From the NCBI RefSeq assembly GCF_003334385.1, contig NZ_QOWN01000160.1: a stretch of 624 bases of DNA. One strand, given 5' to 3'. The notes beneath the pieces are model-generated. The model saw only the letters and a list, made by a program, of their open reading frames with translations, ran no database searches and was not told where the DNA came from. How positions within the stretch are numbered: position 1 is the stretch's first letter; each line of letters opens with the position of its first letter. A program made the translations under genes and the position numbers. Shown here piece after piece: positions 174-624 of the stretch. This DNA comes from Escherichia coli (GTDB taxonomy: Bacteria > Pseudomonadota > Gammaproteobacteria > Enterobacterales > Enterobacteriaceae).

Positions 174-624
174 AAGGTTAAGCCTCACGGTTCATTAGTA
201 CCGGTTAGCTCAACGCATCGCTGCGCTTACACACCCGGCCTATCAACGTCGTCGTCTTCAACGTTCCTTCAGGACTCTCAAGGAGTCAGGGAGAACTCAT
301 CTCGGGGCAAGTTTCGTGCTTAGATGCTTTCAGCACTTATCTCTTCCGCATTTAGCTACCGGGCAGTGCCATTGGCATGACAACCCGAACACCAGTGATG
401 CGTCCACTCCGGTCCTCTCGTACTAGGAGCAGCCCCCCTCAGTTCTCCAGCGCCCACGGCAGATAGGGACCGAACTGTCTCACGACGTTCTAAACCCAGC
501 TCGCGTACCACTTTAAATGGCGAACAGCCATACCCTTGGGACCTACTTCAGCCCCAGGATGTGATGAGCCGACATCGAGGTGCCAAACACCGCCGTCGAT
601 ATGAACTCTTGGGCGGTATCAGCC
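174..624 (-). rRNA. rrl: 23S ribosomal RNA, 3'-terminal portion (about E. coli nt 2454-2904; domains V-VI); partial, continues beyond the window's right edge
   Basis: The reverse complement of 409-424 is AGUACGAGAGGACCGG, the universally conserved sarcin-ricin loop. The reverse complement of 519-529 is GGCUGUUCGCC, the A-loop. The reverse complement of 571-580 is CCUCGAUGUC, the peptidyl-transferase centre strand containing A2503-U2506. The reverse complement of 174-188 is GUGAGGCUUAACCUU, the enterobacterial 23S 3' terminus. The mapping E. coli nt = 3078 - window position places all of these at their canonical numbers, so there are no indels relative to E. coli across the region. Confidence 0.97.

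Follow-up and report, generated by a model that had tools for sequence, protein, structure and literature searches.

The 624-nucleotide stretch of DNA analyzed here (the window, taken at its full length) holds part of a 23S rRNA gene and raises the question of whether this gene copy carries a substitution at the sites where antibiotics bind the ribosome. A first-pass annotation had numbered the gene, read the sensitive-type base at every drug-related position that it listed and concluded that the covered region contains no known target-site resistance mutation. To address what the window is, we scanned it against the Rfam covariance models at a permissive threshold. The bacterial LSU rRNA model (RF02541) matched positions 174 to 624 on the minus strand with 484.5 bits (E = 7.4e-158), and this score, well above the gathering score of 50, places the sequence in that family; the match covers model positions 2480 to 2925 with its 5′ side cut off. 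The 5S rRNA model (RF00001) matched positions 1 to 78 on the same strand with 56.6 bits and with its 3′ side cut off. The arrangement is that of an rrn operon, in which a short spacer separates the 23S gene from a downstream 5S gene on the same strand (Table 1). Apart from LSU and 5S rRNA, the permissive scan returned no RNA family in the window other than a sub-threshold match to RAGATH-30 at 65 to 121 (minus strand), across the spacer and the start of the 5S gene, which we attribute to chance (20.1 bits against a gathering score of 59.5, E = 0.24).

Table 1. Features of the window, in window positions, with the corresponding rRNA nucleotides (nt)
Feature	Window position	Strand	Remarks
5S rRNA gene, nt 1-80	1..80	-	Rfam RF00001; annotated rrf/rrfE; cut at the left edge of the window
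23S-5S intergenic spacer, 93 nt	81..173	-	rrnE/rrnA form; bounds per NC_000913.3 rrnE annotation
23S rRNA gene, nt 2454-2904 (domain VI in full, preceded by the 3′ part of domain V)	174..624	-	Rfam RF02541; cut at the right edge of the window
Sarcin-ricin loop, nt 2653-2667	411..425	-	Reads UAGUACGAGAGGACC, identical to rrlB
Span with the drug-related bases, nt 2498-2617 (3′ strand of the domain V central loop, helices 90-93, start of the closing strand)	461..580	-	
C2611 (467), C2610 (468), U2609 (469); macrolide/ketolide exit-tunnel determinants	467..469	-	Plus strand GGA, rRNA UCC
A2602	476	-	Plus strand T, rRNA A
U2585 (493), U2584 (494); peptidyl-transferase centre core	493..494	-	Plus strand AA, rRNA UU
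G2576 (linezolid-resistance substitution G2576U)	502	-	Plus strand C, rRNA G
Helix 92 with the A loop, nt 2547-2561, including U2552 and G2553	517..531	-	Reads AUGGCUGUUCGCCAU, identical to rrlB
U2500-C2501-G2502-A2503-U2504-G2505-U2506	572..578	-	Plus strand ACATCGA, rRNA UCGAUGU; same in 7 of 7 MG1655 copies

When the window was searched with megablast against 5,426 complete Escherichia coli genomes, many of them, K-12 MG1655 among these, proved to contain all 624 bases with 100% identity, and the annotation of those genomes labels the matched features 23S ribosomal RNA and rrf. The match in MG1655 record NZ_CP032667.1 lies in the context purH-16S-tRNA-Glu-23S-5S-yjaA (purH-rrsE-gltV-rrlE-rrfE-yjaA), which is the rrnE operon. 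Comparison with all seven rrn operons of MG1655 (NC_000913.3) gave a full-window exact match for only two of them, rrnE and rrnA, and the match is equally good for both: rrlE-rrfE and rrlA-rrfA are identical to the window at 624 of 624 bases, spacer and 5S start included. The window therefore fits rrnE and rrnA alike. Its 23S part (nt 2454-2904), taken by itself, is 100% identical to rrlE, rrlH, and rrlA, with the register in rrlA starting at that gene's own nt 2455. As judged from this identity, the window is DNA that is already known, namely standard E. coli 23S-spacer-5S sequence on the minus strand, and an exact match of this kind leaves no role for chance. It is almost certainly an unaltered piece of an E. 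coli rrn operon, identical to MG1655 rrnE/rrnA, with the ancestral base at every drug-related position and nothing beyond the reference, and no feature of the sequence speaks against this reading.

It is unlikely that the window derives from a close Escherichia relative such as Shigella and not from E. coli itself. The collection searched comprised E. coli only, and the rRNA operons of Shigella are nearly identical to those of E. coli; however, the variable spacer is part of the sequence shared exactly with MG1655 rrnE/rrnA and with many E. coli genomes, and an origin outside E. coli would change no base reading.

With the window read as E. coli rrn DNA of the rrnE/rrnA form, its 23S numbering can be taken from an annotated gene. 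In NZ_CP032667.1, the 23S gene occupies locus positions 3548 to 6451 (2,904 nt) and the reverse complement of the window lies at 6001 to 6624, which yields nt = 3078 - position, the very formula on which the first-pass annotation had relied. The formula was confirmed by alignment with rrlB of NC_000913.3, the sequence that we take to be the conventional standard for 23S numbering. This alignment, which had been proposed as a check, gave a single ungapped block that starts at nt 2454 and extends through the 3′ end of the 23S gene, with the sole gap in the spacer; no indel was found between window positions 409 and 580, nor anywhere else in 174 to 624. Only four mismatches to rrlB were present in the 23S part, all in helix 98, and the A loop and the sarcin-ricin loop, used as landmarks in the earlier numbering, do fall on their canonical numbers, as do nt 2498-2507. 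rrlE and rrlB are themselves both 2,904 nt long and differ at four positions only, all of them in helix 98.

The length of rrlA (2,905 nt versus 2,904), which puts counting from its 5′ end off by one, might suggest that a hidden indel shifts the numbering and that residues other than the canonical ones were read. The length differences of rrlA, however, all lie upstream, near nt 1173 and at nt 1867-1873, and the formula counts from the 3′ end of the 23S gene, so that upstream indels in rrlA have no effect on it. Given also the single ungapped block against rrlB over nt 2454-2904 and the canonical landmarks, we regard a hidden indel as having next to no probability and keep the standard numbering throughout.

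The four differences between rrlB and the window (2794 C>U, 2796 U>C, 2799 A>G, and 2802 G>A) are normal between-operon differences. Helix 98 (window 276-284, nt 2794-2802) occurs as GACUC-CUUGA-GAGUC in the window, rrlE, rrlH, rrlA, and rrlC, and as GACCC-UUUAA-GGGUC in rrlB, rrlG, and rrlD; the two forms are related by a compensatory change between C2794-G2802 and U-A, plus two loop changes. The rrlB spacer differs from that of the window by one substitution and a 1-nt difference in length. Across the operons, G at window position 161 was seen only in rrnE and rrnA, the spacer is one base shorter in rrnB, rrnC, rrnD, and rrnG (gap at window 148) and has the length of the window's spacer in rrnH, and window position 91 is A versus G in rrnC. 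At nt 12 of the 5S gene (window 69), A is present in the window, rrfB, rrfE, and rrfA, and C in rrfH, rrfG, rrfD, and rrfC.

On the standard numbering, the 120 nt that contain the drug-related bases (nt 2498-2617) are identical to rrlB from end to end in the alignment. The sensitive-type base had been claimed at twelve positions, and direct reading found it at all twelve, with the same base in all seven MG1655 rrl copies. In the 2500-2506 stretch, for instance, plus-strand A at window 578, T at 575, A at 574, C at 573, and A at 572 correspond to U2500, A2503, U2504, G2505, and U2506 of the rRNA. This stretch belongs to the linezolid and pleuromutilin pocket, with A2503 as the methylation site of both Cfr and RlmN. 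The functional labels given to the positions agree with the literature, with one small correction: all had been grouped under the peptidyl-transferase centre, and U2609, C2610, and C2611 line the exit tunnel at the macrolide site and do not belong to the centre proper. A further 42 drug-related positions were compared with rrlB and with the seven MG1655 copies, and all 42 were equal to rrlB and to 7 of 7 copies. No non-wild-type base, and hence no target-site resistance allele, was found at 2500, 2503-2506, 2576, 2609-2611, or the 42 other positions. Known resistance alleles in the same gene and at the same positions are G2576U, U2500A, changes at U2504, changes at A2503, U2609C, and changes at C2611, and the window differs from each of them in having the sensitive base. 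The first 23S base present is nt 2454, in agreement with the earlier statement that A2058/A2059, G2447, and A2451 lie outside the window.

Published lists of resistance positions mix E. coli and staphylococcal numbering. The "C2534" of one such list (PMC11700844), for example, cannot follow E. coli numbering, as nt 2534 of the E. coli gene is A. Since the lists mix numberings in this way, we relied on identity to the full reference and not on any list of positions.

Within nt 2498-2617, two other MG1655 copies, rrlC and rrlD, differ from the window, neither at a named position. In rrlC, nt 2525 (window 553, helix 91) is A, versus G in the window and the other copies, and the predicted local fold is weaker with A2525 (from -14.3 to -8.8 kcal/mol). 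In rrlD, nt 2547-2550 (window 528-531) read GAUG, versus AUGG in the window and the other six copies; these bases lie in helix 92 (the stem of the A loop), on its 5′ strand, and the predicted hairpin is weakened from -5.6 to -2.9 kcal/mol. The rrlD form was found at no less than 99% identity (≥99%) in 43 of 5,434 records, and the 12 matches listed all come from records of about 4.65 Mb, at coordinates that almost coincide. These 12 look like one K-12-derived laboratory lineage, and the GAUG of rrlD could reflect either a genuine lineage-specific allele or a reference error that was passed on.

To place the window among E. coli genomes at large, we searched for the 120-nt span (nt 2498-2617) and found it at ≥99% identity in 5,426 of 5,426 complete genomes. 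Rows sampled evenly down the ranking were 100% identical, except for the final row, a 2.7-kb fragment record. Because the genome search gives the best place per record and not each copy, we also used 61-nt probes with a central mutation, for which an exact match means a mutated copy. The G2576U probe had an exact match in none of the 5,433 E. coli records. The probe for U2609C, a ketolide-resistance substitution, had an exact match in one of 5,433, at 4449006-4449066 of NZ_CP080253.1 (corresponding to window 439-499), the complete genome of a pig-faeces strain, PC6. E. coli is thus effectively fixed for the sensitive genotype.

The consequences of substitutions at these sites have been described. 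For linezolid resistance, G2576 is the predominant site, and further sites include U2500, U2504, and A2503 (PMC11700844, a 2024 review); G2576 stacks on G2505 and acts via U2504, Cfr methylates C8 of A2503, and more mutated rRNA gene copies give higher resistance (PMC11700844). In E. coli with plasmid-borne rRNA only, U2609C raises the telithromycin IC50 from 4.0 to 41.6 µg/ml, an effect exerted via the disturbed U2609:A752 pair, and C2611 pairs with G2057 (PMC3367204). Both pairing partners, G2057 and A752, are outside the window.

These comparisons support the reading that the covered 23S region has no target-site resistance substitution, a statement about base identity in one copy of about seven. 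The conclusion of the first-pass annotation thus holds, and more strongly than it was put, as the span is identical to rrlB and the whole of nt 2454-2904 is identical to rrlE, rrlH, and rrlA. E. coli is the organism that defines 23S numbering and the "wild-type" bases, and the wild-type result is nearly circular because the window is the reference from which both the numbering and the sensitive bases derive. The DNA of an rRNA gene carries no information on whether the rRNA is methylated by Cfr, RlmN, or Erm. One copy of about seven also says little about phenotype because 23S resistance scales with the number of mutated copies (PMC11700844).

We next consider the reading that the source ribosomes are resistant by means beyond the window, namely Cfr or Erm methylation, other rrl copies, positions outside the window, or changes in uL3, uL4, or uL22. 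Mechanisms of such kinds do exist (PMC11700844), and the one natural E. coli genome with a U2609C copy shows that differences between copies do occur. Against this, the base rates in E. coli are very low, as the two probes show (no exact match for G2576U and one for U2609C in 5,433 records). E. coli is intrinsically tolerant to these drug classes through efflux and the outer membrane, which leaves only weak selection on the ribosomal target. We therefore consider resistance by these means very improbable, substitutions at the positions outside the window (A2058, A2059, G2057, G2447, A2451, C2452, and A752) included. It is likewise highly improbable that the wild-type copy coexists with resistant ribosomes, whether through rrl copies that differ or through an acquired methyltransferase, and the window gives no pointer to either.

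On the reading of the window as an unaltered piece of an E. coli rrn operon, the 120-nt span codes for the 3′ half of the peptidyl-transferase centre together with the adjoining tunnel wall. It carries the species-wide ancestral base wherever substitutions are known to cut the binding of oxazolidinones, phenicols, pleuromutilins, macrolides, or ketolides. We infer from its identity to the reference that this copy would have normal 23S function, in which the tRNA ends are positioned for peptide-bond formation and the drug pockets keep their sensitive shape. The tolerance of E. coli to oxazolidinones and macrolides is set mainly by efflux and the outer membrane, so that the susceptibility of the whole organism does not follow from that of its ribosomal target.

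Taken together, the resistance call is nearly uninformative, as E. coli shows next to no departure from the sensitive genotype at these positions and only one copy, with roughly half of the sites that matter, falls within the window; in this species, target mutations are not what limits the drugs concerned. What the result does show is that the earlier conversion of coordinates and reading of bases can be relied on and that the window consists of reference E. coli rRNA sequence.
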